The position numbers and the translations under genes are program-made. This document shows, piece after piece, positions 3,132 to 62,867 of a DNA stretch of 64,000 nucleotides. Location of the stretch: positions 36,765-100,764 of IMG/VR virus record IMGVR_UViG_3300028833_000104. One strand, written 5' to 3'. Position 1 is the first letter of the stretch, and every line of letters begins with the position of its first letter. Origin of the DNA: a virus (taxonomy: Duplodnaviria > Caudoviricetes). A model generated the notes under the pieces. It ran no database searches, was not told the origin of the DNA, and saw only the letters and a list, made by a program, of their open reading frames with translations.

Positions 3132-3566
3132 ATGAGTACAAGATGTTTAGTTGGTTATAGAGATAAGGATACAGTTCATTATATTTACTGTCATCACGAT
3201 GGCTATGTGGAGGAACCAGGTGTTGGTTATACCTTATTTAATTATTATAAGGATTTAAATAAAATTAAGGATTTAATTTCAAGAGGCAGCACTTCTGATA
3301 TTGCACCTAACGTTGAAGATTGTAACTTTTACAAGGAAAAAGGTTGGGGTGAAAAAACCGTTGATGTAGCTAATTATGGCTTTAATTGTCAAGATGATGC
3401 GGAATATATTTATCTATTCCAAAACAATGAATGGTATGTTTTATATGCAGATTATGAAACTGATAGAAATAACATTGAAAAGGTTGAATATTTACTAAAT
3501 AAACCTGAGGATGACGAGGAAGATATACCTACTTGGGATTCAATTTTAAATAAGGTATATAATTAA
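3132..3566 (+). CDS. conserved phage hypothetical protein
   Basis: MSTRxxVG...IYCHHDGY...EYIYLF pattern common in phage proteins. Confidence 0.7.
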   Translation: MSTRCLVGYRDKDTVHYIYCHHDGYVEEPGVGYTLFNYYKDLNKIKDLISRGSTSDIAPNVEDCNFYKEKGWGEKTVDVANYGFNCQDDAEYIYLFQNNEWYVLYADYETDRNNIEKVEYLLNKPEDDEEDIPTWDSILNKVYN

Positions 3567-3581
3567 AATATACCTTTTTTT
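3552..3581 (+). terminator. intrinsic terminator
   Basis: AAGGTATAT/ATATACCTT hairpin followed by a T-run. Confidence 0.7.
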
Positions 3582-3617
3582 ATTGTATAATTATTATATA
3601 TTGAAAGGATTGATTAT

Positions 3618-4280
3618 ATGTTAAATGTAAAACCATTAACTCCTCAACAAATTGAGGAAAATAAAAATTTATTTATAAGTTTAGTAAATCAAATTAACAT
3701 TGATGGGGTAGATAAAGATGGATTGATTAATTATCTATTAAATTCAGATTTCTTCTTTGCACCTGCATCTACTAAATATCATTCAAACTTTGATGGTGGA
3801 TTATGCCAACATAGTTTAAATGTTTATTTTGCACTAAAGAATTTATATGAAATGTATAGACCTACTATTGGTGATATTGATGAGAATAGTTTAATTATTT
3901 GTGGTTTATTCCATGATATTTCAAAAGTTAATTTTTATGAAAAATATACTTCAAATAAAAAAATTTATAGTGAACAAGGTTCAAAACATGATAATGGTGG
4001 AAAGTTTGATTGGGTAGCAGTAGATGCTTGGAAGGTTAGAGAGGCAAAAGATAGATTTATTGCTGGAACTCATGAGGAAAATTCAGTACTATTATTAAGT
4101 AGATTTATTCCTTTAAATAATGATGAAACTGTTGCCATTATGAACCATCATATGCACACTGGCGATGGTGTTCAATTTATGGACCAAACCTTTATTTGTA
4201 ACCAATATCCATTAGCAGTTTTATTACATACAGCTGACTTCTTATCAACATATTGTGTAGAAGGAATTGTAAGTGAATAA
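3618..4280 (+). CDS. HD-domain phosphohydrolase
   Basis: APASTKYH, GGLCQHS, LFHDISK, AIMNHH, LHTAD. Confidence 0.85.
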   Translation: MLNVKPLTPQQIEENKNLFISLVNQINIDGVDKDGLINYLLNSDFFFAPASTKYHSNFDGGLCQHSLNVYFALKNLYEMYRPTIGDIDENSLIICGLFHDISKVNFYEKYTSNKKIYSEQGSKHDNGGKFDWVAVDAWKVREAKDRFIAGTHEENSVLLLSRFIPLNNDETVAIMNHHMHTGDGVQFMDQTFICNQYPLAVLLHTADFLSTYCVEGIVSE

Positions 4281-4629
4281 CTTAATTAAAAAACAATTGG
4301 AATCAGTACAAATTGCCGATTTAACTCATTTTAATGAAGAGGATAATACTTATTTTATACCTCAAAAGAAAACCATTAAAATCGAGAGAAATAAAGCATA
4401 TCTAATATTTGTAAATGATTCCTTCTTTTATAACAAAGTATTACAGGATAATTGAAATAAAGGATTAGTTTTAAAAGATAGATATATAAAAGCAGAAGTA
4501 GATGATGTTATGGGTAAAATGATTAAAGTTACCTGTATTGGATACGATGTTTTAAATAGAAAAGATACAAATAATTTCTGAAATGGTTGATTACCATTAG
4601 ATAGTATTCAAGTATTACAAAAATTATAA
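4273..4629 (+). CDS. hypothetical protein (3 TGA read as Trp)
   Basis: Frame continues through three TGA codons to TAA 4627-4629 and fills the gap to dnaX. Confidence 0.7.
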
Positions 4630-4656
4630 TGTATATTCATATAAGGAGATGATTTA

Positions 4657-5676
4657 ATGGAAGCGTTGGCAGTTCGTTATAGACCCCAAAAGTTTGAGGA
4701 TGTCTGCTCTCAGGGCTCTATAATAACAATATTAAAGCAACAATTACAAAAGAAAGAATATACCAACTGTTATGGATTTTGTGGGCCATCAGGTTGTGGT
4801 AAAACAACTATTGCAAGAATTTTTGGTAACGCCATAAATCAAGGAAAAGGTGAAATAATTGAAATAGATGGTGCTTCTAATAACGGTGTAGATAATATTA
4901 GAAAGATTATTGAAGAAGCAAGTACTAGATGTATTGACGGTGCTGAATATAAGATATTTATCATTGACGAATGTCATATGATTACAACAGCAGGATGAAA
5001 TGCATTCTTAAAAACAATTGAGGAACCACCTAAGTATAGTATTTTTATGTTCTGTACTACAAATCCTGAAAAGATGCCTGCAACTATTAATAATAGAATT
5101 ATGAAATTTAATCTTTCTAAAATTGATACAAATTTAATCAGAAGTAGATTAGAATATATTTGTCAACAAGAAGGTTTTACAAATTATAATGATGCTTGTG
5201 ATTACATTTCAAAATTGTGTCAAGGTGGAATGAGAGATGGTATTTCATTATTAGAAAAAGCAGCAAATTATAATACCGATTTAAGTATTGATAATGTATT
5301 AGAAGCATTAGGTGATTTTAGTTATGATTCATTCTTCAATCTAACAGGTGATTTGTTAAATCAAGATGAAGGTAATGTTTTATTAACTATTAATAATTAT
5401 TTTAATCAAGGAAGAGATTTAAAATTATTTGTTGACCAGTATTTAGATTTCACATTAGATTTAGCAAAATATTGCTTATATAATGATATTAATTATGTTA
5501 AGATACCTGCAAATCTAGCTCCTAGATGTCAAGGTTATTCAGGTATTCCTAATATTTTAGATTGGACTAATAGATTAATTGGCAAGGTATTAGATGTTAA
5601 AAATGCTATTAGATATGATATTAATTCCAAGACAACAATTGAAGCTATGTTTATAGCAATAAGTAGAGGTATTTAA
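4657..5676 (+). CDS. dnaX: DNA polymerase III clamp loader gamma/tau subunit
   Basis: LAVRYRPQKFEDV, GPSGCGKTT, IIDECHM, TTAG[TGA]NAFLKTIEEPP, GGMRD; two track ORFs join through TGA 4996-4998. Confidence 0.93.
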
Positions 5677-5678
5677 AT

Positions 5679-6533
5679 ATGAGAATGTTTGATCATGATG
5701 AAGATAATAGCTATTATTGGCTGGAAAAAGATAATGAGGAATTAAAAGCACAAATTAAAACCTGGAAATGAAGATATGAAACTCTTGAAAAAATGTTGTT
5801 AAATGTTTGTAGACATACTTATATGTTAAAGGCAAATCAAATCAATGTTAATCAATTATTTGCTGTAGTAAATGGTTGTTTAACTAACGAAATAATTGAT
5901 AGATTTACTTGGGATTATTTAATGGATGAAGAATCAAAGAAATTACAAACACATAAAAAAATTCAAGATGTTATGAAGAAGTATATTCATGATTATGATG
6001 ATGTAGAAATAAAAACTGATGAAATTGATGAAAGTGGTTCCCCAGTTATTATAACAAGTCAAAAAAATATTTATGAAGGCAACTTAACTCAACAAGATAT
6101 TGAAGATGCTTTTAAAGAAGAAAACTATTTAAATGATACTGAAGTAAATAATTTAGAATTAGATGAGATTGACAAAGCGGCATCACCTGTTATAGAGAGA
6201 CAAGATGATGGTAGATATAGAATTAGATATGATTTAGCATATGATAGTTTATCTCCTTTATGGCCTAATGATTCTTTATATAAAGGTAATTTACCTGATG
6301 AAGTTTTATTAAAAGGTTTAAATGAAGATTCTGAAGGTTGTTTATCATCAAGTCAAATTGAAGATGCAATTGAAAGTGGAGAGATTAATATTAATTTAAA
6401 TAATTTTAATATGTCGGATTTTGGAATAAAACAAGAATTCGGATTAAGTAAAGAAGATATTGAAAAGATAATTTATAATCAAGATGTAATGAAAATATTA
6501 AAAGATATTATAGATTTAGTTAATAATAAGTAA
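5679..6533 (+). CDS. acidic hypothetical protein
   Basis: Extends upstream through one TGA to ATG 5679, immediately after dnaX. Confidence 0.65.
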
Positions 6534-28138: not shown

Positions 28139-29101
28139 TTAATCCCATAAGCTTTCTTCAAATTCATCTGTGCCTTTATATTCATAATTGGTAGCCCAAT
28201 CATGTAAACTTCTTAAATTAAAGATTGCTCTTGGATATGGCTTATCATCAGCAATCATTTCATCTAAATTTAATCCATATTTAGTACACATATCTGCAAC
28301 AGTTTTCTTAACTGCTGGCGATAAATTATTTATATGTTGTGGATCATTTAAATTTCTATTACTTACGTAAACTGTAGTATAACCTACTTGTAAATTTCCA
28401 AATGATGCAGTTCTTACCCAAGAGGTTGAATCTGCTGAGGTAAAAGGAAATTGTTCTAATATTCTTAAAGAGGTCATACCAAATGCGTGCGTTTTAACAT
28501 TTGGATTAGGACTTTCCTTTATCATTTTAAATACGATATTGAACCAATCAACCCAATCAGAACTACTAACTTCCTTATTACAAGAAATTCCAATATAATC
28601 AATATGTTGACCAACACAAGATTTATCTAAAACATCTTCTGGATAAACATAATCTAACATTTGTTTTAAATACTTAAAATCTTCACCTTGGTGGAAGATC
28701 GGTAATAACTTTTTAGGTGATTTTACCTTTTTTACCATATATAAATAGTTATTCCAACTATCTATTGGAGCTTGTGCTAATTGTTCTGGTGTTTTAGGCT
28801 TTCCTCATTCACCAGGAATTTTATCCACTTGAGCAAATACGGTAACTTGGTCATCTACTGAATTCATAAATTCAATATATTCATCTACATCAACTTCTTT
28901 ACCTTTTGTATGAGCGGTATATGCACCTGAGTCAATAAATAATTTACTCTTACATTCAGGATGAGCTCTTTTATATTCAACTCATTCAATACATGCTTTA
29001 CGCTCATTTAATTGAGATAACAATTGATCATAGCCAAGTTCTCTTTTTAAATCTGTTGATTCTTTATTAAAAGAACCAGCTGCATATAAATTAAACTTCA
29101 T
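28139..29101 (-). CDS. dpdA: DpdA-type 7-deazaguanine DNA transglycosylase (TGT fold)
   Basis: LFIDSGAY, QVDKIPG, LPIFHQGE, HAFG, SADSTSW; joined through 2 TGA; clustered with que genes. Confidence 0.8.
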
Positions 29102-29163
29102 TTATTATTATTCTCCTTTCCGAACCATATATATAAATATACAATTAACAATAAAAAAATCCC

Positions 29164-29565
29164 TTATTTTTTAAAGGATTTTTTATATTTTTTTATAAGA
29201 TATTTATAAGTTTTTCTCCAGTTAACCTTACCATATGATGATAATTCATCTATATAATAACTTGCAATTATTTTTCCAGTTTTGCCGTGAATATATTCTG
29301 AAGAATCCTTTAACATATATGGCATATTAAATTCTGTAATGCATCTATTATAGGCTTCATCATACTCTTCATCAATTCTAGATGACCATAAAATTAATTT
29401 AAATCCTTTTTGATGCAATTTATCCAAATATTTTTTAGCTTTTCTATCTAAAGGAGCTAACTCTGGATAAGGTTTATATTGAGTTATAGTATTATCATAA
29501 TCAACTGCTATTAACCTACTATGGGCTTGAGCCCAATAATTTTTCTTATCCTCTTCGGTAATCAT
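29164..29565 (-). CDS. cap-less HAD-superfamily phosphatase
   Basis: IAVDYDNTI, LILWSSR, KII..YYIDE. Confidence 0.8.
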   Translation of the reverse strand: MITEEDKKNYWAQAHSRLIAVDYDNTITQYKPYPELAPLDRKAKKYLDKLHQKGFKLILWSSRIDEEYDEAYNRCITEFNMPYMLKDSSEYIHGKTGKIIASYYIDELSSYGKVNWRKTYKYLIKKYKKSFKK

Positions 29566-30465
29566 TTATTGCTCCTTTTTATTATGATATTTATAAATTT
29601 CTTTCATCACCTTTTTATATTCCCTTTTAGAGCCATTATATGTAAACATTTGAATATGTTCTCTATGAGCCCAATAACCATATAAATCATATTTCTTACA
29701 TATTTCTTCAGGAATATAATTTTGTTTGAATGTAATACAAGGACCAATTTTATTACCTATTAAAGCATTTTCATCAACATATTTTAAAATTATCTTGCTA
29801 TTATCTTCAATCTTTTTTCTTAACTTATCTATATTAAAATTATTTAATACCTTTAATAAGTGCTCTAATATAAATGTTGGAAATGTTGCAGGTCCTTGAT
29901 TTTTATCTGCATATGTTTTATATCTAGCAAGATTTAAATATGACATCTCTGAATCATTTTTAAATAAATCCCAAGAATCTTTTCTAATTCCGACAACAGC
30001 TAAACCAATATAGGAACCAATTTGTTTATTTAAACTAGTAATAAATCCACGACAATTTTTTGGAAAATCTAAATATGGAAAACCACTAGTAGCATCAATA
30101 AAACAATCCTCATCGCTATAGAATGATTCAGATACTGATGTTTCATAATTACAATATAAATTTATTGCATCCTTACTTTTTTGATTAGTAGTTAATTTTC
30201 TATAATAATTACGATACATATCAGTCCATCTAGATTTAAATGTACCTTCCACTCCAATAATATTTAATGGAACCTGTAATGAATACATTAAGGATTCAAT
30301 TCCAACAGTTGCTGACCCTGGAATAAACATTATATCATAATTTTCTAAATTAAATACTTCTTTAAATTTCTTTTGTACCTTTTCATAATATTCAAAAAAT
30401 TGAATATCTCTATGTGAATAATTAATATTTACCTTATCCTTAAAATAGGTATTTGGTCCAAACAT
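29566..30465 (-). CDS. PLP-dependent class V aminotransferase (AGT/SerC/PhnW-like)
   Basis: FGPN, SHRD, PGSAT, NYETS, IDATS, SLNK (PLP lysine), PATFP. Confidence 0.8.
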   Translation of the reverse strand: MFGPNTYFKDKVNINYSHRDIQFFEYYEKVQKKFKEVFNLENYDIMFIPGSATVGIESLMYSLQVPLNIIGVEGTFKSRWTDMYRNYYRKLTTNQKSKDAINLYCNYETSVSESFYSDEDCFIDATSGFPYLDFPKNCRGFITSLNKQIGSYIGLAVVGIRKDSWDLFKNDSEMSYLNLARYKTYADKNQGPATFPTFILEHLLKVLNNFNIDKLRKKIEDNSKIILKYVDENALIGNKIGPCITFKQNYIPEEICKKYDLYGYWAHREHIQMFTYNGSKREYKKVMKEIYKYHNKKEQ

Positions 30466-30466
30466 A

Positions 30467-31207
30467 CTACTCCTCCAATCTTTTTTTAGAATTAGTAATA
30501 ACGGTTCTTATTTCCTCATCTTCTTTAGGAGTTCTATAAATTTCTTTACTATCCATTTCTTCTTTTATATGTTCATTAAAATACTTTAAATTCTTTGCTA
30601 ATACATCTTTATCAAATTCATACCCATTATATGCAAATGCAATGAATTTTCTAAAACATGACTTACAATTCCAACATTCTTCTAAATCTTCAGATGGATT
30701 ATAACAACTTAAGGATTCCTTAAATGCTTTATCTATACTTCCACCTTCATCCATATACATTCTTAATAATTCTGCTTTTGTTTTATTTCTATAATCAGTA
30801 ATTACTTTAATGTGCTTCCCATTTGGTACCCAATGTTGTGGACTATATAAATAATTTAATATATCCATTGCTTTATTAAAGAATGTTTCTGACTGATCTA
30901 AAGATCTATCTCCTGCTGTTGCCCCAACACAAATTTCTACATTATCGCTTAATGTTTCATTACAAGCAACCATAATTAAATATAAATTTCTTAAAGGAAT
31001 GATTGCATCTTCTCTTTCATATTGACCAAGAGGAAAATCTACAATCTTAACATCATCCTTTAATAATTTAATTTTCTTAATTTCTTCCTCAGAATATTTA
31101 GTATGCATATCTACATAAATTCGTAAATCAGGCTTCCATAACTTATCAATAAGCCAACTATCCATTCCGCCACTATACAACATAACTTTAACTGTTTTAT
31201 TCGCCAT
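30467..31207 (-). CDS. queC: QueC-like PP-loop ATPase (divergent 7-cyano-7-deazaguanine synthase)
   Basis: SGGMDS, IPLRN, SCY...CWNCKSCFRK zinc site; lacks YPDC. Confidence 0.8.
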   Translation of the reverse strand: MANKTVKVMLYSGGMDSWLIDKLWKPDLRIYVDMHTKYSEEEIKKIKLLKDDVKIVDFPLGQYEREDAIIPLRNLYLIMVACNETLSDNVEICVGATAGDRSLDQSETFFNKAMDILNYLYSPQHWVPNGKHIKVITDYRNKTKAELLRMYMDEGGSIDKAFKESLSCYNPSEDLEECWNCKSCFRKFIAFAYNGYEFDKDVLAKNLKYFNEHIKEEMDSKEIYRTPKEDEEIRTVITNSKKRLEE

Positions 31208-31287
31208 ATTTTTATTCCTTTCAATATATTTAAATATACAATAGTTATAATTAAAAATCCTCCTTAATAGAAGGATTTTTAACCTTA

Positions 31288-32130
31288 TTAACCAATAATT
31301 ACTTTATTTTTCTTTTCCTTAAATACTCCAGATTTATATACAGTTGTTAAATTACCATTCTTTGTATTAGCACCACGGAATTTTTCACAACCATGAACTA
31401 ATCCAATCATTTCAACCATAACATCTTCTGAACCACTAATTCTCTTAATAGTTGTTCCAATATAAGAACATAAATCTTCTTGTAACCAACCTCTACTAGC
31501 GCACCAATCTGCAAATCTTTGTAGTTTACTAATTCCAATTAAATTATCTTTTGGAATATATGTAATAGTTACTCTTGCATTTGGCTCTAATGAACTAAAA
31601 GGTAAGAAATGATGTGAACATACTGCAACAATATCAACCTGCTTACTAATTGGGTAATCAACAACTTCTCCTGTTTGACTACCATCATTAGGGAATACTG
31701 ATAATGCAGGTTCCTTATTCCATCTACCACTTAATAATTCTGTAGTATCTTCAGGGTCATTTCCACACCACATTTTAGCAATACGACCAGGTGTTCCTTT
31801 ACCTAATGCATTAATAGCAATATTAGGATCTTCTTGATCTACCTTCATTGCATCAAATGCTTGCATTAAATAATAATGAGTTAATTCTCTCATAATCCAA
31901 TGAATTTCAGGTTTAAGACTATTACCTTTAACAAATTCATTTTCCTGGTCAATTAAATCTTTCTTATCTACTTTATAATTGGTTAACTTTTCATGAATAT
32001 TTTCATTAGCTCTAAATACCGGTAAAACTAAATATGATTTTCAATTTTCTTCAAATGTATCTAAAGTTCCAAATTTCTTTTTATATGAATCCTTTAAGAA
32101 TCCTAAAGCTTCTTCTGTTACATTAATCAT
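31288..32130 (-). CDS. folE: GTP cyclohydrolase I
   Basis: TPGRIAKM, CSHHFLPF, GISKLQR, LQE, HGCEKFRG; N-terminal extension through one TGA. Confidence 0.9.
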
Positions 32131-32179
32131 TCTATATCTCCTTTTCTTATAATGAATTATACAATATAAATATAATTAA

Positions 32180-32605
32180 TTAACATTCACATTCGCTACA
32201 AAGTGCGTTTTCTTCTGCAACTGTTTCAGCTTCTTTTTGTGCTTGTAATTCTGCCTCAGTATAAATATATCTATTAGGGATTTTAACTATATGTTCATAT
32301 CCCTTATAATCTGAGAAAATACTCTTTTCAGCATAACATCCAGGAATTTCAACTAAATTTTCAGGACAAATTAAATAGTCTGCCTTAGATAATAATTGAA
32401 TAGATGCACCTAGATACCAAATCTTTTCATCAACTTCCTTTGGAGGATTATCCTTTACAATAGTATTAATAAAATCAATATTATCTGCTTCAATATCATT
32501 GTCTACTAAATATGCTCTGGCAATTCTCTTCATCTTACGAATTGAATATTCAATGTCCTCTTTCTTTCTACCTCTCATAGGTACACTAATAAATACTTTA
32601 ATCAT
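32180..32605 (-). CDS. DUF4406 / nucleoside deoxyribosyltransferase-like fold protein
   Basis: KVFISVPMRG...LLSKAD...GCYAE. Confidence 0.6.
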   Translation of the reverse strand: MIKVFISVPMRGRKKEDIEYSIRKMKRIARAYLVDNDIEADNIDFINTIVKDNPPKEVDEKIWYLGASIQLLSKADYLICPENLVEIPGCYAEKSIFSDYKGYEHIVKIPNRYIYTEAELQAQKEAETVAEENALCSECEC

Positions 32606-32629
32606 AACTTATTTCCTTTCTATTTATTA

Positions 32630-33415
32630 TTAGACATCTTTTTTTGTAGGCTCCCAGAAGAATTTATGAATTTGTAATTGAGCCTTAATATTTTTATCTG
32701 GATGAGCTAGAATATAATCAGGAATTCTATGCATTGTTACTTCACCAAAACAAGGACTTAAATAAATATTTGCTTTAGTTCCTGATTCATTAACAATCCA
32801 ATCTAATTCTTTCCAATCATCTTCATCATCTGAAATTACCATTTTAACTAAATCATATTCAGAATATAAATTAAAGTTAGATTTAATCATCTGCTTAGTC
32901 ATTTTAGAATGAGGTAACTTATAATCAGCAATGATGGTTACACCTTTTCTATCTCCAGTTGCTGGATTTACAGTTGGATTACCAAATTTATTTTTATAAT
33001 CTGTATAATCAATTCCGCCATCAGTTTCAATACTTACATCATAGCCAGCATTTACAAATAATGGAATTAATTCATTCATCATAAAATCCTTATTTTCTTC
33101 CATTAAAGGTTCACCACCAGTTAAACAAATTGACTTTGCTCTATAATCTGTTTCAATTAATTCAACAGTTGCAAAAATTTGTCTTGCAGTCATCCATCTA
33201 AAAGGATCTTCCCAATCCTTTCTCTCAGGATAAACCTTTAACATATTTTCTTTTGACCAACACTCTTTAGTGTCACAAAATACACATCTTAAATTACATC
33301 CGAAAGTTCTAATAAATACGGTTGGTTTTCCAGCTAAACTCCCTTCACCATTAATACTTTCAAATATATTTATAAGTGCAATTTCATTAGCACCATTTTC
33401 ATTTACTCTTATCAT
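32630..33415 (-). CDS. queE: 7-carboxy-7-deazaguanine synthase (radical SAM)
   Basis: IFESINGEG, FIRTFGCNLRCVFCDT, TGGEP, IETDG, QLQIHK. Confidence 0.92.
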   Translation of the reverse strand: MIRVNENGANEIALINIFESINGEGSLAGKPTVFIRTFGCNLRCVFCDTKECWSKENMLKVYPERKDWEDPFRWMTARQIFATVELIETDYRAKSICLTGGEPLMEENKDFMMNELIPLFVNAGYDVSIETDGGIDYTDYKNKFGNPTVNPATGDRKGVTIIADYKLPHSKMTKQMIKSNFNLYSEYDLVKMVISDDEDDWKELDWIVNESGTKANIYLSPCFGEVTMHRIPDYILAHPDKNIKAQLQIHKFFWEPTKKDV

Positions 33416-33451
33416 AGTTCAGTTTCCTTTCAATTATATGATAATATACAA

Positions 33452-33751
33452 TTACTTATTTCCTCTTAACCATTTTCTATAAGCATTAATTTTAACGTTC
33501 TTGCCACCAAAACGTGTTTCATTTAACATTTTATGAATAGTTGTTTTACCATTTTCAATTAATCTTAATTGATTTCCACTTAATGTTAAATGCTGATTAG
33601 TAGTTTCATTATATAATTCATAATTATAAGCATTATGAACTCTTAATTTAATTTCTCTTCCATAAATCTTCTTATAGTCATTTTTTCTATAATAATGAAC
33701 TACTTTAAATCCGTCATAAACTTTTCCTAAAAATTTACTTTTTAATTCCAT
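33452..33751 (-). CDS. basic hypothetical protein
   Basis: Intact ORF with GAAAGGA RBS. Confidence 0.6.
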   Translation of the reverse strand: MELKSKFLGKVYDGFKVVHYYRKNDYKKIYGREIKLRVHNAYNYELYNETTNQHLTLSGNQLRLIENGKTTIHKMLNETRFGGKNVKINAYRKWLRGNK

Positions 33752-33790
33752 ATTAAATTTCCTTTCAATTATTTGATATATTATTATACA

Positions 33791-34501
33791 TTATTTTCTA
33801 AACCAAGTAATTCGAGGGTCTCATATTTCTACATATAAACCATCTTTATATTCGTCCCAATACATTCAATCTTCACCTTTTCAAGATTCAGGTTCTTTAA
33901 AATCTTTTATAAATTCCTTATCAGGAACTAGATACATTTCACCTCGATAAACACTTTCAACAATAGCTGGTTGATCACAATACCAAACTTTTGTTCCTAT
34001 TAAATTTTTATTCCAATCTATAGTATCAATATCTGCTGGTGAAGCTTTTGCTTCATATATAATTTTCATTGCATTTACGTATGCACCTTCTAAAGAGCTA
34101 TTACAACCTTCATAAAATAATTCATCATTTCTTGTTATGTTATATTTTACACTAGTTCTAAAGCTATATTCATCTCATTTATATTTTAAATAAGAATCTT
34201 CCTTAATACTAAATCCTCATCTAACCTGCATGTTGTCTCTGTTACATGAAATTAAATTATCAATTATCTTATCTTCAGGACAATCTCTTTCACATATAAA
34301 TCAGGTATCTTCTCTATATAAATATTTTTCTTTATCACTTTCCTTATAATTATCAAAATCAGGACCTAAATGATAACCAAAATACTCCTCGCCTTTAATA
34401 ACAATATCTCAATTTAGTCTACTTAATTCTCCATTTTGTCATTTTAATCTTAATGGAGTATAACCGATATGTTTGTTTTCTTTTGTTTTTAAGTCTTCCA
34501 T
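33791..34501 (-). CDS. hypothetical protein (about 8 TGA read as Trp)
   Basis: Continuous frame from ATG 34501 to TAA 33791 under code 4. Confidence 0.7.
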
Positions 34502-34509
34502 ACTATTAC

Positions 34510-34887
34510 CTATTCTTTATCAAATTCTCAAGGAAATACAATCCATCTATCTTCTTTATAAGCATAATAATAATCAGGTTTAACGATTGATCTTTCATGA
34601 TAATACATTGTAGTAATATAATATTTATTAAATTGTGTATCATTATCAGTATAATGACATAATGTTCTACCACTATCTGCAATATCATCAATTATAATAC
34701 AACCTTCTGTAGGTGCTAATAGAAGAGGAATATTCATTCTATAACTTAATAATGTTGCTAAAATTAATCCACCCCTTGGAATACCATAAACACCAGTAGG
34801 TTTAATTTTATTTGAATTAGCCCAGTTAACTACATTTTCGATATATAGTTCCATATCTTTCCAACTTACTAATACCTTTTCTACCAT
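34510..34887 (-). CDS. Gpt-like type I phosphoribosyltransferase
   Basis: GIPRGG, IIDDIADSGRTL, C-terminal WIVFP[TGA]E matching the conserved FPWE. Confidence 0.88.
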
Positions 34888-34979
34888 AATAATTCCTTTC
34901 AAATTTCCTTTATTTTTAATTTTTATATATTCTATATATAAATTATAATGTGTTAAATAAAAACCGAAATAACAAGAAG

Positions 34980-35501
34980 TTATTCGGTATATGTAACCTT
35001 ATTATGTGATGTTTCTTCAACTGTTATAGCTAAAGACTCTACATCTAATCCTTCGGCATCAAATTTATCATACATAACATGATACCATAATTTTGCCATA
35101 TATTCAGCAGTTGGATTTTCATCCCAAATAAATAATCTACTTCTATTTAAATCAATACCATTTTGTTTGAAATTCTCAATATATGCCTGAGTTAATGGAT
35201 TATCAGGTGTTAAAATCATACTATGGTCATATTGATCAAAATATTCATGAATAATTTTCTTCATTTTCTTAAAATCTATAACCATTCCATTCTCATCTAC
35301 TGCTCTTGTATTTAATGAAACAGTTACAAAATAATTGTGACCATGAATTATTGGAAATATACAATCTCCTAAATCATATCTTTCCTTTTCACCATCATTT
35401 TTTAAATCCCTGTAAACATTACCACAGCATAAACCGCTATATGCACCTCTGTATAAACAGTGAGCAATAGGTAATTCTATATTAGTTTCAATAGTATACA
35501 T
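34980..35501 (-). CDS. queD: 6-carboxytetrahydropterin synthase
   Basis: AHCL, IHGHNY, GMVIDF, DH, NPTAE, VEET. Confidence 0.88.
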   Translation of the reverse strand: MYTIETNIELPIAHCLYRGAYSGLCCGNVYRDLKNDGEKERYDLGDCIFPIIHGHNYFVTVSLNTRAVDENGMVIDFKKMKKIIHEYFDQYDHSMILTPDNPLTQAYIENFKQNGIDLNRSRLFIWDENPTAEYMAKLWYHVMYDKFDAEGLDVESLAITVEETSHNKVTYTE

Positions 35502-35532
35502 AATTTTACCTCTTTTCTTACTTATTATACAA

Positions 35533-36069
35533 TTAATTATTTCCGGTACTTCCGAATCCACCATTTCTAGTTTCATTAGCTTCATCATCATCTGTAATGT
35601 AATATTTAGTAAAAATACCTTGAACTATTCTATCTCCTGCTGCAACTGTTAATGAATCGAATCCAGGAACAAGCTTAACCATTATGTGTCCCTCATTCTT
35701 TTCATTATTATAATAATCGCTGTCAATAATACCGATAGTATTTGCTAAATATGTACCTGATTTGAATCCAACACCACTTCTAGGTACAACTGTTAAAAAC
35801 ATATCACCAGGCATTTGAGCCTTAATACCGAGAGGAATTACAATAGGTTTCTGTGACCAACTAAACATACTGGGTAGTACATTATTAGAGGCAGATAACA
35901 TAAACGACATAGGTGAATAAATATCATAACCAGCGGAATATTTAGAACCTCTTTTTGGTAATTTTATATTATCATATAATTTCTCAATATCGTCTTCTTT
36001 TACTAAAGGAAAGTATTCCTTCATATCTTTAATATATTGTTCTAAACTAACTTTTTCAAATTTAATCAT
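35533..36069 (-). CDS. dut: trimeric dUTPase
   Basis: SAGYD, PRSG, GIIDSDY, GDRIVQ, RNGGFGSTG. Confidence 0.95.
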   Translation of the reverse strand: MIKFEKVSLEQYIKDMKEYFPLVKEDDIEKLYDNIKLPKRGSKYSAGYDIYSPMSFMLSASNNVLPSMFSWSQKPIVIPLGIKAQMPGDMFLTVVPRSGVGFKSGTYLANTIGIIDSDYYNNEKNEGHIMVKLVPGFDSLTVAAGDRIVQGIFTKYYITDDDEANETRNGGFGSTGNN

Positions 36070-36070
36070 C

Positions 36071-36541
36071 TTAGCACTCCTTAATAAAATATATTGCCTT
36101 AAAATAATCTCTGGCTTCCATTAGAACTTTTCCTAATAAATTTTGACCACTGCCATCTCTACCTGTTCCTCAAACATAGTCAAAAGGAGAATCTTCAACA
36201 ATAGTTTGATTACCAGTAGAAAGTAAAATATTTCTTAAATCTTCATTTTGTGAATATTTTTGTATATTTATGGTTAACATAAAATTATATCTAACTGATG
36301 ACCATTTTTCATCATTAAAATCCTTAACCTGTCTACCTAATTTTTTAATCTTCTTAGGTTCAGTTTCAGCCATAATCTTTTCCGCTGTTTCAACATCTTT
36401 AAAATATATTGCTTTTGCATACATAAATGCTTGTTCAGAGCAATTAAATTCTATTCCTTGCCACGTAAATTTACAAGGATGAAAATTACTGAAACAACCA
36501 TATTTTTCTCTTTCTTTCCAAAATCCAATTACATTTTCCAT
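36071..36541 (-). CDS. NADAR (YbiA/DUF1768) family protein
   Basis: FSNF, SEQAFM..KA, LGRQV, LLSTG, SPFDYV[TGA]GTG, GQNLLGKVLMEAR. Confidence 0.9.
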
Positions 36542-38106: not shown

Positions 38107-38906
38107 TTAGTCCTTATTTTTATATCTTCTTTTCATTTTTTCGTTATAGTAATAAGTATTTTTTAAATATTCATTATCCGTTTGATTTGCATAAGCTATT
38201 TCATCTTTATTAAAGCAATGACTATCCCAATATGGGTGACTAGGATATACCGCTGAATGCTCTCTAGGAATTCTTGGGTCTAATAAAACACATTCTCTTA
38301 CATTTTCAAAACAAATTCCTTGTTTAGTTAATCCTTCCCAAATACTTGTCCAGAAGCTAACATTATTTGCTAAATATGCATTTTCGGTTAACTTTGCAGC
38401 TTCTGCTTCTCTTCTTGTTACATATCTAAAAACATGTCTTGCATCAAATATTTCTTGATATATTTCTTGAACTTTTTGACAATCTTCTACATCTCCACCT
38501 AAAATAGTGAAATTATATGTAAAGTTATTACAATGTTGAGTAGCTCCGGCATGTTCGGGACTATGAATAATATGCTTTCCTGTTTGTAACTGTAAATAAT
38601 CACAATATCCAATATTAGTTGTTGATTTAATTAGATATATGTCTGCATTAACTTCTTGAATAGCATCATAAACTAAATGGCAGTCTAATTCTCCAACTTT
38701 TTCATCATAAGGTGTTGGAACAGCTACTATTGCTAAATCATAATTAATATTTTTAACTTCCTCTAATGCTAATTCAAAGGTCATTGGAGTTTTATTAACA
38801 AAGGATTGATTTAAATCAATATTTCAGGAAAATATTTCTCTCTTAAAACATTATATTCTAATTGTCCTACAACTCCATAACCAACTATTATTATTCTTTT
38901 ATTCAT
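38107..38906 (-). pseudogene. UDP-glucose/GDP-mannose dehydrogenase-like gene with a frameshift near 38820
   Basis: IVGYGVVG Rossmann N-terminus (ATG 38906, stop 38811) is in a different frame from AVPTP, KST, SPE, AKLTENAYLA, HCFNKD (38107-38784). Confidence 0.7.
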
Positions 38907-60115: not shown

Positions 60116-60448
60116 CTAAATATCTAGTACAACCAATTCCCAATTACCGTAATGGAAAGAATAATTATATTCATGCCATTCCATTCTTTCCCAAATAAAA
60201 GGCCAAGTTAATTCCTTATCTTCAAAATCCAATGGAATAAATGTACCTGTAATATCCTCAATTAATTCCTCTACATTTTTGACATAATAAGATTCTTCCA
60301 TTCATTCTTTTTTAGTGAATTTCTCAAATTCGCCTCTATCAATTTTATTTCCTTTATAAAATAAAACAGCAATATCATCGTCATATTGGTATTCTTTTCT
60401 GTTTTCTCTTTTATATATTGGTTTATAAATATCAGGTAATAAGCCCAT
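60116..60448 (-). CDS. hypothetical protein
   Basis: AAGGAGG RBS, ATG 60448, one TGA. Confidence 0.65.
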
Positions 60449-60460
60449 AATTTTACCTCC

Positions 60461-60967
60461 TTATGAATTATAAATATGCTCTTTTGCATCTTTTTCAGTT
60501 AAAAACCAAGAATGACCATATTCATGAATAGGATATTCAAATTCATCATATCCTCCACCATAATCGTCATCATATTCGCTAACAATAATAAATGATTTTT
60601 GCTTTTTATCTCAATGAGAATACTGCTCAACTGTTCTATGAAATAAATTTTTTGAAAAACTTAATTCAACTATTACATCATCTTCTTTTAAATTAACTAT
60701 CTTTTTAAGGGTATTAATATCAACATATTTTAATAGAGAATCTAAATATTCTTTAGCTGCTTTTTCAGCTTCACTTTTAGTTAAAAAGAATTTTATATTT
60801 AAGTCCTTCCAATTAAAACCCATATTTCTTCCAAAAACTTTAAAATTAATATAATGTGTATCTACTTTTACATCTGTATTATGACCTACTTCTCCTAATT
60901 TATTATAGTACCATATTCCTTCGGTCATAACTTGATATAATGTATCTTTGTCAAAATTATAATTCAT
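60461..60967 (-). CDS. hypothetical protein with duplicated FLTxxxA motif
   Basis: One TGA; FFLTKSEAE and WFLTEKDAK. Confidence 0.65.
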
Positions 60968-62791: not shown

Positions 62792-62867
62792 TGGCAGGGG
62801 TACCAGGACTCGAACCCGGACACGAAGTTTTGAAGACTCCACGGCTACCATTACCTCTTATACCCCT
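62792..62867 (-). tRNA. tRNA-Trp(UCA), reads UGA
   Basis: AGGGGTA/TACCCCT acceptor, G73, encoded CCA; anticodon arm GGAGT-CTTCAAA-ACTTC; T arm CCGGG-TTCGAGT-CCTGG. Confidence 0.95.

Follow-up and report, generated by a model that had tools for sequence, protein, structure and literature searches.

Analysis of the window, a 64,000-nucleotide stretch from the genome of an uncultured sheep-gut phage, revealed a DNA cluster for 7-deazaguanine in place of guanine, which spans positions 28139-35591 on the minus strand and reads TGA as Trp. The cluster encodes QueD, a guanine-type phosphoribosyltransferase (PRTase), QueE, FolE, a divergent QueC (QueCx), a 299-aa class V PLP aminotransferase (AT), a 133-aa capless HAD phosphatase and DpdA. 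The ORFs for DpdA, FolE and QueE are intact only with TGA as a sense codon, and in an alignment the TGA codons of DpdA mostly fall where homologues have W at the same site, indicating Trp rather than Gly. A tRNA with anticodon UCA, predicted by ARAGORN at 62792..62867 (minus strand), would read TGA and supports the recoding on which the cluster depends.

The core genes, all on the minus strand like the rest of the cluster, include queD, encoding a PTPS-type CPH4 synthase (34980..35591; 203 aa; PF01242, 2.9e-21); queE, the radical-SAM CDG synthase (32630..33433; 267 aa with one TGA; PHROG 2076, 7.7e-39; PF04055, 1e-10); and folE, GTP cyclohydrolase I (31288..32130; 280 aa with one TGA; PF01227, 8.8e-25). 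The established role of these three families is the conversion of GTP to 7-carboxy-7-deazaguanine (CDG). The DpdA-type DNA guanine transglycosylase (28139..29101; 320 aa with two TGA; PHROG 887, 1.7e-49) showed 42-44% identity by tblastn with the DpdA proteins of Streptococcus phage Dp-1 (42%) and Bacillus phage Flasso; that of Dp-1, a phage with dPreQ1 DNA, is the closest from an isolate. The xanthine/guanine-type PRTase (34510..34902; 130 aa; PF00156, 4e-9; NCBIfam NF006613, 3.6e-10, below cut-off) probably salvages guanine freed by DpdA, and a PRT gene also follows QueCx and HAD in loci L029 and L036 and lies beside DpdA in L015. Three further genes encode a 236-aa protein with eight in-frame TGA (Trp) codons (33791..34501) and a 99-aa protein (33452..33751), both without a Pfam or PHROG match, and a 141-aa protein with weak similarity to nucleoside 2-deoxyribosyltransferases (32180..32605; PHROG 355 only, 1.9e-4). 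A truncated UDP-glucose dehydrogenase-like gene is also present in the window (38107-38784).

The genes folE, queD, queE, queC, AT, HAD and dpdA were all confirmed where an earlier note had placed them, and lie on the minus strand; ORF coordinates gave the same spacing, with queC and the AT 1 nt apart and the AT and the HAD 0 nt apart, the latter gap also kept in L001. The absence of QueF, ArcS and glutamine amidotransferase genes, noted for the window, extends to the entire 100,764-bp record, estimated to be 57% complete, in which searches for QueF (PF14489), the ArcS core (PF17884) and GATase_7 found none.

QueCx (30467..31207; 246 aa; PF06508, 7e-13) is a divergent QueC-family PP-loop/Zn ATP-dependent ligase, whose predicted structure (pLDDT 88) is nearest to Cap9 (9nto, the top structural neighbour), QueC (3bl5/2pg3) and QatC. 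It retains the PP-loop (S12-S17) and four Zn cysteines (C168, C178, C181 and C184), with GDRSLDQS (99-106) aligned opposite ..SGYPDCR of the E. coli enzyme. GDRSLDQ in place of YPDC, pointed out in the earlier note, is not a mark of the AT-linked QueC: YPDC is missing throughout the QueCx family of at least 821 clusters, as against 111 for the AT, and the majority lack an AT, as do 77 of the 80 viral QueCx loci. The AT thus does not account for how far QueCx as a whole has diverged from QueC.

One pocket residue behaved differently. Where the YPDC substrate motif of the E. coli enzyme has C134, the aligned residue is Gln (Gln105 in the window) in every AT-linked QueCx (the window protein, P0112-P0120, P0122, P0190 and the QueCx of L002 and L089) and Lys in each of the 77 viral loci that lack the AT and in over 150 database proteins. 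This Lys-to-Gln105 change tracks the presence of the AT with no exceptions, and when IMG/VR was scanned with a DNA pattern for the Gln form, only the three AT-bearing contigs matched. Counting against a phosphorylated amine as substrate, Lys to Gln is not the naive expectation for binding of such a compound. The Gln form occurs at two places of the QueCx tree and a single origin was not rejected by an AU test (p = 0.19), so the covariation may reflect no more than one or two events.

The AT (29566..30465, minus strand) had no Pfam match, and its AF2 model (pLDDT 95.5) identified it as a compact class V enzyme of the SerC/PhnW fold, with SerC (3ffr, 1.2e-15), AEP transaminase and AGXT as the top Foldseek matches; the family profile matched SerC 3m5u at 2e-11. 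Lys147, Asp124 and His18-Arg19 are invariant across the family. In an alignment, the invariant His-Arg pair falls on the SHR segment of SerC; in SerC this segment binds the substrate phosphate, which would fit a small phosphorylated substrate. In the AT tree, the window protein was nested (99/95 support) in a gut clade of ATs from bacterial polysaccharide loci, to which it is 48-53% identical and which contain no deazaguanine genes; this argues that a reaction on a small molecule has been conserved. Identity with the window AT is only 25-28% for the ATs of L012, L013 and L015, the last of which has a better score as a PhnW-like enzyme, and these three may use a different amine.

Comparison of 108 loci of viral, MAG and metagenome origin that contain an AT relative, a set with some redundancy, counted within 1.5 kb, indicated that the main home of the family is a triad of ATP-grasp ligase, AT and HAD. 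An ATP-grasp ligase was found near the AT in 71 loci, 65 of which also had a HAD gene, and a QueC-like gene took its place in seven, such that the AT adjoins an ATP-dependent carboxylate-activating ligase in 78 of the 108; a TagF-like glycerophosphotransferase and/or cytidylyltransferase was found in 15. Marine triads are flanked by UDP-glucose dehydrogenase-like and GT genes. These counts place the family nearly always beside enzymes consuming small amines or alcohols in phosphorylated form. In every deazaguanine locus with an AT, the usual ATP-grasp or TagF partner was absent, leaving the QueC-like enzyme as the only ATP-dependent ligase nearby. As for the queC-AT-HAD-dpdA synteny in other phages, the AT-QueC adjacency recurred in very divergent lineages, with class V ATs abutting QueC-like genes, in varying order, in the clade of the window and L001, in L012 and L013, and in L015; the HAD was not specific to the AT, the same HAD type following QueCx in AT-less loci as well.

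We propose that this phage locus modifies DNA with a 7-deazaguanine and includes an extra tailoring step: the AT produces an amine in phosphorylated form, likely serinol phosphate, and QueCx ligates it to CDG before or after insertion by DpdA; we give this scheme as a whole about an even chance. FolE, QueD and QueE would turn GTP into CDG, and the AT would use a common keto-phosphate of the host to produce the small phosphorylated amine, the likeliest reaction being dihydroxyacetone phosphate to serinol phosphate. QueCx, as the proposed CDG-amine amide synthetase, with Gln105 marking its AT-linked form, would adenylate the CDG carboxyl and couple the AT-made amine in place of ammonia. The phosphate would be taken off by a phosphatase, possibly the adjacent HAD, which is the weakest step, and DpdA would swap guanine in phage DNA for an N-substituted 7-carboxamido-7-deazaguanine, in whichever order the last three steps take place; the PRTase would recycle the guanine released in the exchange. 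This pathway is built on gene identities, folds, conserved catalytic residues, neighbourhood statistics and the Lys/Gln covariation, and its substrates and product are predictions. Because the AT family is found elsewhere beside ATP-driven amide-forming ligases and phosphatases, the phage probably attaches a small amino-alcohol to the base, and if so the resulting deazaguanine would be new among described DNA bases; our literature search found no publication describing an AT-QueC module. Thus, of the amine-supply interpretation offered earlier, the central part survives: the AT most likely works together with the QueC-like ligase, supplying the amine for CDG amide formation, as suggested by AT-QueC adjacency in divergent phages, the ATP-grasp/AT/HAD triad, Gln105 and the precedent of RoyL, Cap9 and QatC. 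YPDC loss as an AT-linked signature and the HAD as a specific, SerB-style partner of the AT were not borne out.

The HAD (29164..29565, minus strand) is a BT0820-type phosphatase (NF046079, 3.3e-12, NCBIfam, below cut-off; PDB 2obb, 4.6e-7; PHROG 1238, 1.5e-14) with the DxDxT motif at D22/D24/T26, and is a candidate either for dephosphorylating the amide product or for a nucleotide phosphatase, which may be unrelated to the AT. A reading with appreciable probability, if short of even, couples the AT to QueCx and sets the HAD apart as a (deoxy)nucleotide phosphatase that, for example, trims the canonical dGMP pool or handles deazapurine nucleotides with the PRTase. The same HAD type lies directly after Lys-type QueCx in 12 AT-less phage loci, followed by PRT in L029 and L036; its homologues (gp30.2) lie beside the dUMP hydroxymethylase gp29 in SPO1-like hmU Bacillus phages; and in L004, L012, L013 and L015 the AT is present without an adjacent HAD. 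Against a separate HAD, the 0-nt gap to the AT is conserved in L001, the proven order in C. jejuni is amide formation and then dephosphorylation, and HADs of three unrelated subfamilies adjoin the AT in different contexts, in at least 65 triads and in L016, where a NT5C-like HAD lies between DpdA and AT; such repeated recruitment of unrelated phosphatases suggests that the AT product is phosphorylated.

It is also conceivable, though unlikely, that the AT, with or without the HAD, is cargo, a glycan-decoration remnant or a general metabolic helper that was inserted between queC and the HAD, and that QueCx makes ADG or preQ0 as in its AT-less relatives. The main contexts of the AT are glycan-type loci, most viral QueCx-DpdA clusters do without it, the L004 AT sits 6.5 kb from QueCx within the replication module, and the window contains the truncated UDP-glucose dehydrogenase-like gene. 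Cargo does not account well for a QueC-like enzyme that is the sole ATP-dependent ligase near these ATs, for adjacency across very divergent phages, for 1-nt and 0-nt gaps that point to co-translation, or for a Lys-to-Gln change that follows the AT without exception. Far less probable is action of the AT on the deazaguanine skeleton itself, interconverting 7-formyl- and 7-aminomethyl-7-deazaguanine as a QueF-independent path to dPreQ1. This alternative, raised in the earlier note, would be in keeping with the lack of QueF in the record and the dPreQ1 DNA of Dp-1, but there is no evident reductase to yield the aldehyde from CDG or CDG adenylate, the invariant His-Arg fits a small phosphorylated substrate, and the closely related polysaccharide-locus ATs, with their conserved ATP-grasp, HAD or TagF-like partners, occur apart from deazaguanine genes.

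Like the phages known for DpdA-dependent modification by FolE/QueD/QueE/QueC and DpdA, including Escherichia phages CAjan and 9g and Streptococcus phage Dp-1 (PMC6884629, PMC10516641), the window clusters FolE, QueD, QueE, a QueC-family enzyme and DpdA in a replication module. Unlike them, its QueC lacks the residues defining a canonical preQ0 synthase, its queC and dpdA are separated by a class V AT and a HAD, and QueF, the ArcS core and GATase, the three searched for, are absent from the record. The tailoring enzymes published for phage deazaguanine pathways are QueF, ArcS, Gat-QueC, DpdL, DpdM and DpdN, and neither paper mentions an aminotransferase or PLP enzyme (PMC6884629, PMC10516641). 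The divergent QueC* of Campylobacter phages, a proposed ADG synthase that stops at the amide rather than the nitrile (PMC10516641), keeps a YG..H..E segment and an aromatic residue at the YPDC-equivalent position (YWDT), neither of which QueCx keeps, and has no associated AT; QueC* was not detected with QueCx as tblastn query at E<=1e-3.

The AT resembles SerC in fold, in being nearest to it by sequence and in its aligned PLP Lys, Asp and SHR, and, as in a SerC/SerB pair, a HAD phosphatase adjoins it. It is about 60 residues shorter, however, scores 34 bits against a SerC cut-off of 253 and belongs to a family never found in a serine-biosynthesis context, and the HAD is not SerB-type. A matching layout, by analogy, is that of the C. 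jejuni HS:2 capsule pathway, in which Cj1437 transaminates DHAP to serinol-P, the C-terminal domain of Cj1438 carries out ATP-dependent amidation of GlcA and the HAD Cj1435 takes the phosphate off after amidation (PMC11800397); the AT triad, with GT, ATP-grasp, AT and HAD genes and a UGDH-like gene nearby, mirrors this arrangement, whereas in the window a PP-loop enzyme of the QueC family would act as the ligase, on CDG rather than glucuronate.

Precedents for the ligation itself come from the QueC family. Cap9 of type IV CBASS and QatC of QatABCD, which ligate CDG to protein amines (PMC13329287; PDB 9nto, 9y01), resemble QueCx in having the QueC fold with its PP-loop and Zn site, and they join CDG through an amide bond to amines other than ammonia. 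In their case the amine is the N-terminus of a protein and the function is host defence, unlike the phage DNA modification setting of QueCx, which scores 21.8 bits against the NCBIfam QatC cut-off of 280. As summarised in a preprint, RoyL-type QueC homologues, the deazapurine amide-bond synthetases of roseomycin A, couple CDG to Lys, Orn or DAB (bioRxiv 10.64898/2026.04.15.718813). As described there, these enzymes belong to Streptomyces secondary metabolism, use amino-acid substrates and come with no DpdA, unlike the window cluster; they adenylate CDG and attach an organic amine in place of ammonia, which, with a likeness at the level of the QueC family, is the chemistry proposed here for QueCx.

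The deazaguanine genes of the window, which is AT-rich (GC about 27%) and forms the right-hand 64 kb of a 100,764-bp viral record with an estimated completeness of 57%, lie on the minus strand within a replication module comprising genes for a DNA polymerase (family A in relatives), SSB, primase, helicase and loader. In order of transcription, a NADAR-domain protein (36071–36541; PF08719, 3.4e-50), directly upstream of the dUTPase and deazaguanine genes, is followed by the dUTPase, QueD, a xanthine/guanine-type phosphoribosyltransferase (PRTase), two unknown proteins, QueE, a weakly NDT-like protein, FolE, a divergent QueC-like ligase that we call QueCx (30467–31207), a class V aminotransferase, AT (29566–30465), a HAD phosphatase (29164–29565), DpdA (28139–29101) and a sliding-clamp-like protein. 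The genes for synthesis of 7-carboxy-7-deazaguanine (CDG) are all present (FolE, PF01227, 8.8e-25; QueD, PF01242, 2.9e-21; QueE, PHROG 2076, 7.7e-39), and DpdA (PHROG 887, 1.7e-49), which adjoins pathway genes, shares 42–44% identity with DpdA of phages Dp-1 and Flasso. With DpdA accompanied by FolE, QueD and QueE, the cluster has the gene content of phage DpdA-type 7-deazaguanine DNA modification, the function that we predict for it. The coordinates in the earlier note, the gaps of 1 nt and 0 nt that it reported around AT and its description of the QueCx motifs were all correct. NADAR homologues were also seen about 8 kb from QueCx in two other collected loci (L032 and L033).

Several genes of the window are whole only when TGA is read as a sense codon. 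Because the TGA codons of DpdA mostly align opposite Trp of homologues from standard-code phages, and because a tRNA with anticodon UCA is encoded at 62792–62867 on the minus strand, we read TGA as Trp; code 25, in which TGA is Gly, was dropped since the TGA columns match Trp. One gene of the cluster (33791–34501) has eight in-frame TGA codons, and AT, HAD and QueCx have none. Sampled sequence words of the stretch were found at 91–93% in sheep-gut DNA runs and at 55% in a sheep-gut metatranscriptome run, the latter a measure of word content and no evidence of expression.

Analysis of QueCx revealed both conserved and remodeled elements relative to canonical QueC (PF06508 cluster 1, PMC13329287). 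The PP-loop (SGGMDS, S12 to S17), the zinc site (C168, C178, C181 and C184, with a first spacing of 9 rather than 8 residues) and the VPxRN motif, whose R99 is essential in canonical QueC (here I-P-L-R73-N74), are kept. In contrast, QueCx lacks YxQxHxxE, with D, H and K aligned at the Y35, Q37 and H39 positions and only E42 retained, and it lacks YPDC, having GDRS--LDQS with no aromatic residue, in which only D104 (equivalent to D133) is kept and Gln105 occupies the Cys position. Both Y35 and Y131 are essential in E. coli QueC (Libby et al., PMC13329287). The canonical QueC model TIGR00364 gave QueCx 26.6 bits (cut-off, 150), and a sequence search of the PDB gave no match, so that only the fold search placed it, a structural model (pLDDT 88) being closest to Cap9, B. 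subtilis QueC and QatC.

AT had no match in Pfam, including Aminotran_5, or in PHROG. Its AlphaFold (AF2) model (pLDDT 95.5) matched SerC, 2-aminoethylphosphonate transaminase and AGXT structures in Foldseek with E-values of 1e-15 to 1e-12, among them 3ffr (1.2e-15, TM 0.75), 3m5u, 1m32 and 3zrp. An alignment of 39 family members showed invariant MFGPN, H18-R19, E-T-S, D124 and N146-K147, and the family profile matched C. jejuni SerC (3m5u) at 2e-11, aligning its SHR, Asp ('ivDasS') and Lys ('vqKN') segments with H18-R19, D124 and K147, respectively. These alignments point to K147 as the Schiff-base Lys and D124 as the Asp at the pyridine nitrogen, as in class V enzymes of fold type I. SerC itself was ruled out as the identity of AT, which at 299 residues is about 60 shorter than SerC (about 360) and scores far below the SerC equivalog cut-offs (NF003764, 34.4 versus 253 bits; TIGR01364, 28.8 versus 443.6 bits). 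Its compact length, fold and invariant residues, together with these low scores, therefore identify AT as a compact class V aminotransferase of the SerC/PhnW/AGXT group. The family forms 111 clusters in a large protein database, yet tblastn with three AT variants found no member among 50,697 GenBank phage records, and within that set we thus found no cultured phage that carries it.

To define the genetic context of the family, we counted genes within 1.5 kb of AT in 108 loci (16 from IMG/VR, 12 from species-representative genomes or MAGs and 80 from metagenomes). The majority (65) had both an ATP-grasp ligase and a HAD, and six had the ligase alone; a TagF-like glycerophosphotransferase and/or a cytidylyltransferase was present in 15, a QueC-like gene with a HAD in three, a QueC-like gene alone in four, a HAD alone in six (short contigs) and none of these in nine. 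Marine loci are arranged as GT8-like, ATP-grasp, AT and HAD, the ligase gene overlapping the start of AT and its profile matching the L-amino-acid ligase 3vot at 1e-4, with UDP-glucose-dehydrogenase-like, PIG-L and sugar epimerase genes nearby. This block is kept in marine phage and MAG contigs (L005–L011, L113, L114 and 57 of L121–L200), and we found no description of it in the literature. An equally truncated relative (L005:12146–12895) of a truncated UDP-glucose/GDP-mannose dehydrogenase-like protein of the window (38107–38784, minus strand, 225 residues; PF00984, 4e-10; PHROG 9148) occurs with the marine clusters at 26% identity. Gut MAGs instead show ATP-grasp (PF13535, 1e-12), then HAD (PF12710), then AT. 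In rumen Spirochaetia MAGs and a Marinifilaceae MAG (L118), AT abuts the TagF-like gene, with a cytidylyltransferase also beside it in the latter; loci of this type were L110–L112, L115, L117, L118, L125–L133 and L191. Among fragmentary marine contigs, one QueC-like ORF, about 12 kb from AT, exceeded the cut-off and another contig had a sub-threshold match; we judged these unrelated.

The layout of ligase, AT and HAD matches the HS:2 capsule pathway of C. jejuni, in which Cj1437 transaminates DHAP to (S)-serinol phosphate, the C-terminal domain of Cj1438 joins this product to the carboxyl of glucuronate in an ATP-dependent reaction and the HAD Cj1435 removes the phosphate after amidation (PMC11800397). 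By analogy with these three proteins, the marine block is likely to join an amino-alcohol to a uronic acid through an amide bond, and the TagF-type context suggests addition of a CDP-activated amino-alcohol phosphate to a polymer. The AT family would make a small phosphorylated amine that serves ATP-dependent amide ligases or, once activated with CMP, phosphotransferases. The best fit to all contexts appears to be serinol phosphate, because its CDP-linked form would closely resemble the CDP-glycerol used by TagF-like enzymes.

At a subset of AT loci, a QueC-like gene holds the place usually taken by ATP-grasp. These were the window, its relative L121 (92–96% identical), L001/L002 (DpdA-QueCx-AT-HAD...QueD-QueE-FolE), L012 (AT-QueC-x-DpdA), L013 (AT-QueC-QueE-FolE..QueD) and L015 (FolE-PRT-DpdA-AT-QueC). 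In L016, DpdA and an NT5C-like HAD precede AT; in L004, AT and DpdA-QueCx are 6.5 kb apart, and the surroundings of AT hold no other ligase. Identity to the window AT is no more than 25–28% for the ATs of L012, L013 and L015, whose QueCs form another non-canonical clade, marked by an insertion and by retention of YGQ and an aromatic residue. The window clade is nested, with support of 99/95, within a gut clade of the AT tree that includes polysaccharide-locus ATs 48–53% identical to it, and the L004 AT branches elsewhere. This nesting and identity suggest that the phage AT was probably recruited from polysaccharide-type loci with its reaction intact. In L015 a clamp-loader-like AAA+ ATPase with an intein (3779–5134; PF14890, 2e-13) adjoins the AT-QueC pair, and in L001 a GIY-YIG homing-endonuclease gene splits DNA polymerase A into two ORFs directly upstream of DpdA (3167–6366).

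The QueCx family comprises at least 821 clusters, and AT was found within 10 kb in only 3 of 80 IMG/VR QueCx loci. Because AT is so rarely nearby, the loss of YPDC, which is family-wide, cannot be attributed to it, and GDRSLDQ in place of YPDC, pointed out in the earlier note, does not mark the AT-linked form. Gut-phage QueCx proteins lacking Y35 and Y131 were observed in standard DpdA/FolE/QueD/QueE clusters (L028–L106). What does track AT is the position that follows the invariant Asp and aligns with C134 of YPDC. All AT-linked proteins carry Gln here, namely that of the window, P0112–P0120, P0122, P0190 and the QueCx of L002 and L089, although for five database proteins we infer the pairing from equal lengths of the contigs (P0113/P0003, P0116/P0039, P0117/P0004, P0120/P0048 and P0122/P0055), and Lys stands there in 77 of 77 loci that lack AT and in over 150 proteins from the database. 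A DNA-pattern scan of IMG/VR found no Gln-type QueCx beyond three AT-bearing contigs. The Gln form appears at two places in the QueCx tree, and an AU test of two independent origins did not reject a single origin (p = 0.19). The cultured Bacteroides phage BS162P1 (L017, about 60181–60909 of its record) encodes a distant QueCx relative (31% identity) with DpdA-like and QueE-like neighbors, all annotated as hypothetical; this isolate could serve to learn the product of Lys-type QueCx.

The HAD has 133 residues, no cap and motif I as D22-Y-D24-N-T26. Its closest match is the capless BT0820 family (NF046079, 3e-12; PDB 2obb, 4.6e-7), scoring below the equivalog cut-off (46.9 versus 165 bits). The three AT settings have HADs of unrelated subfamilies; no relation emerged from hhalign of the window HAD with the profile of the marine HAD or from pairwise BLAST of the three types. 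The earlier note had treated AT and HAD as one unit, a view that stands in part. A HAD directly follows AT in the window and L001, and the triads likewise keep one; against its belonging with AT, in 12 loci that lack AT a Lys-type QueCx is directly followed by a HAD of the same BT0820 type, sometimes with a PRTase next, and homologues (gp30.2) adjoin the dUMP hydroxymethylase gp29 in SPO1-like hmU phages, as in Bacillus phage Goe9 (L120, 105648–106049, right after gp29). The placement of gp30.2 would fit a nucleotide phosphatase of modified-base phages, and the order of genes points to insertion of AT between the members of a pre-existing QueCx-HAD pair. We regard removal of phosphate from the amide product and an action on nucleotides as about equally likely roles of this HAD.

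We propose that AT supplies a phosphorylated amine, that QueCx would couple it to CDG and that DpdA would install the resulting N-substituted 7-carboxamido-7-deazaguanine in DNA, a scheme to which we give about an even chance. That AT is cargo unrelated to the base seems rather unlikely to us; its scarcity near QueCx is consistent with such cargo, and the Gln in every AT-linked QueCx argues for a functional tie. The earlier note had also raised transamination of the base itself, between 7-formyl and 7-aminomethyl forms without QueF. Neither QueF, the ArcS core nor GATase_7 was found anywhere in the 100,764-bp record, as that route would have it, and the family's usual place beside ATP-grasp ligases points to a small amine; we consider this route very improbable. 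The remaining weight belongs to schemes that we have not thought of. Carried to its product, the phospho-amine scheme leads to a more tentative claim, for which we would offer somewhat less than even chances: that the phage DNA contains an undescribed purine, an N-substituted 7-carboxamide of 7-deazaguanine, likeliest the serinol amide (calculated [M+H]+ of the nucleoside, 384.151), made through a transaminase-fed QueC-family amide synthetase.

Such an enzyme would add N-alkylated carboxamides, a new chemical class, to DNA hypermodifications, and AT with Gln105-type QueCx would provide a sequence marker for finding such phages. If the scheme is true, one pocket residue, Lys or Gln105, may help to determine which amine phage QueC-like enzymes accept. 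Bases of this kind are important in the evasion of restriction and CRISPR, in host defences whose glycosylases detect modified bases, and as enzymatic tools for labelling DNA. We found no mention of an AT-QueC module in the literature on phage deazaguanines and the QueC family; new here are the triad context of AT, the capsule-pathway analogy, the Lys/Gln marker and the independent distribution of HAD.

Phage DNA is known to contain eight derivatives of 7-deazaguanine, and each of them is linked to a tailoring enzyme (PMC10516641). Within the QueC family, RoyL ligates amino acids to CDG (bioRxiv 10.64898/2026.04.15.718813), and Cap9 and QatC ligate CDG to protein amines (PMC13329287); the chemistry proposed for QueCx therefore has direct precedent. 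RoyL-type enzymes are marked by a remodeled amine-side motif (the Tyr41/His45/Glu48 region in RoyL); in QueCx the YxQxHxxE region is remodeled, and it is so in the AT-less relatives as well. Modelling cited in the same preprint places the Asp/Cys region of RoyL, next to the Lys/Gln position of QueCx, in contact with AMP-CDG. Like the C. jejuni amidation module, the window encodes a ligase, a transaminase and a HAD together, here as contiguous genes; the likeness is one of gene layout, and the ligase of the window is a PP-loop enzyme and not ATP-grasp. If true, the scheme would link phage DNA chemistry to the decoration logic of bacterial capsules, as the first use at the level of DNA of their combination of amine-phosphate, ATP-ligase and HAD.
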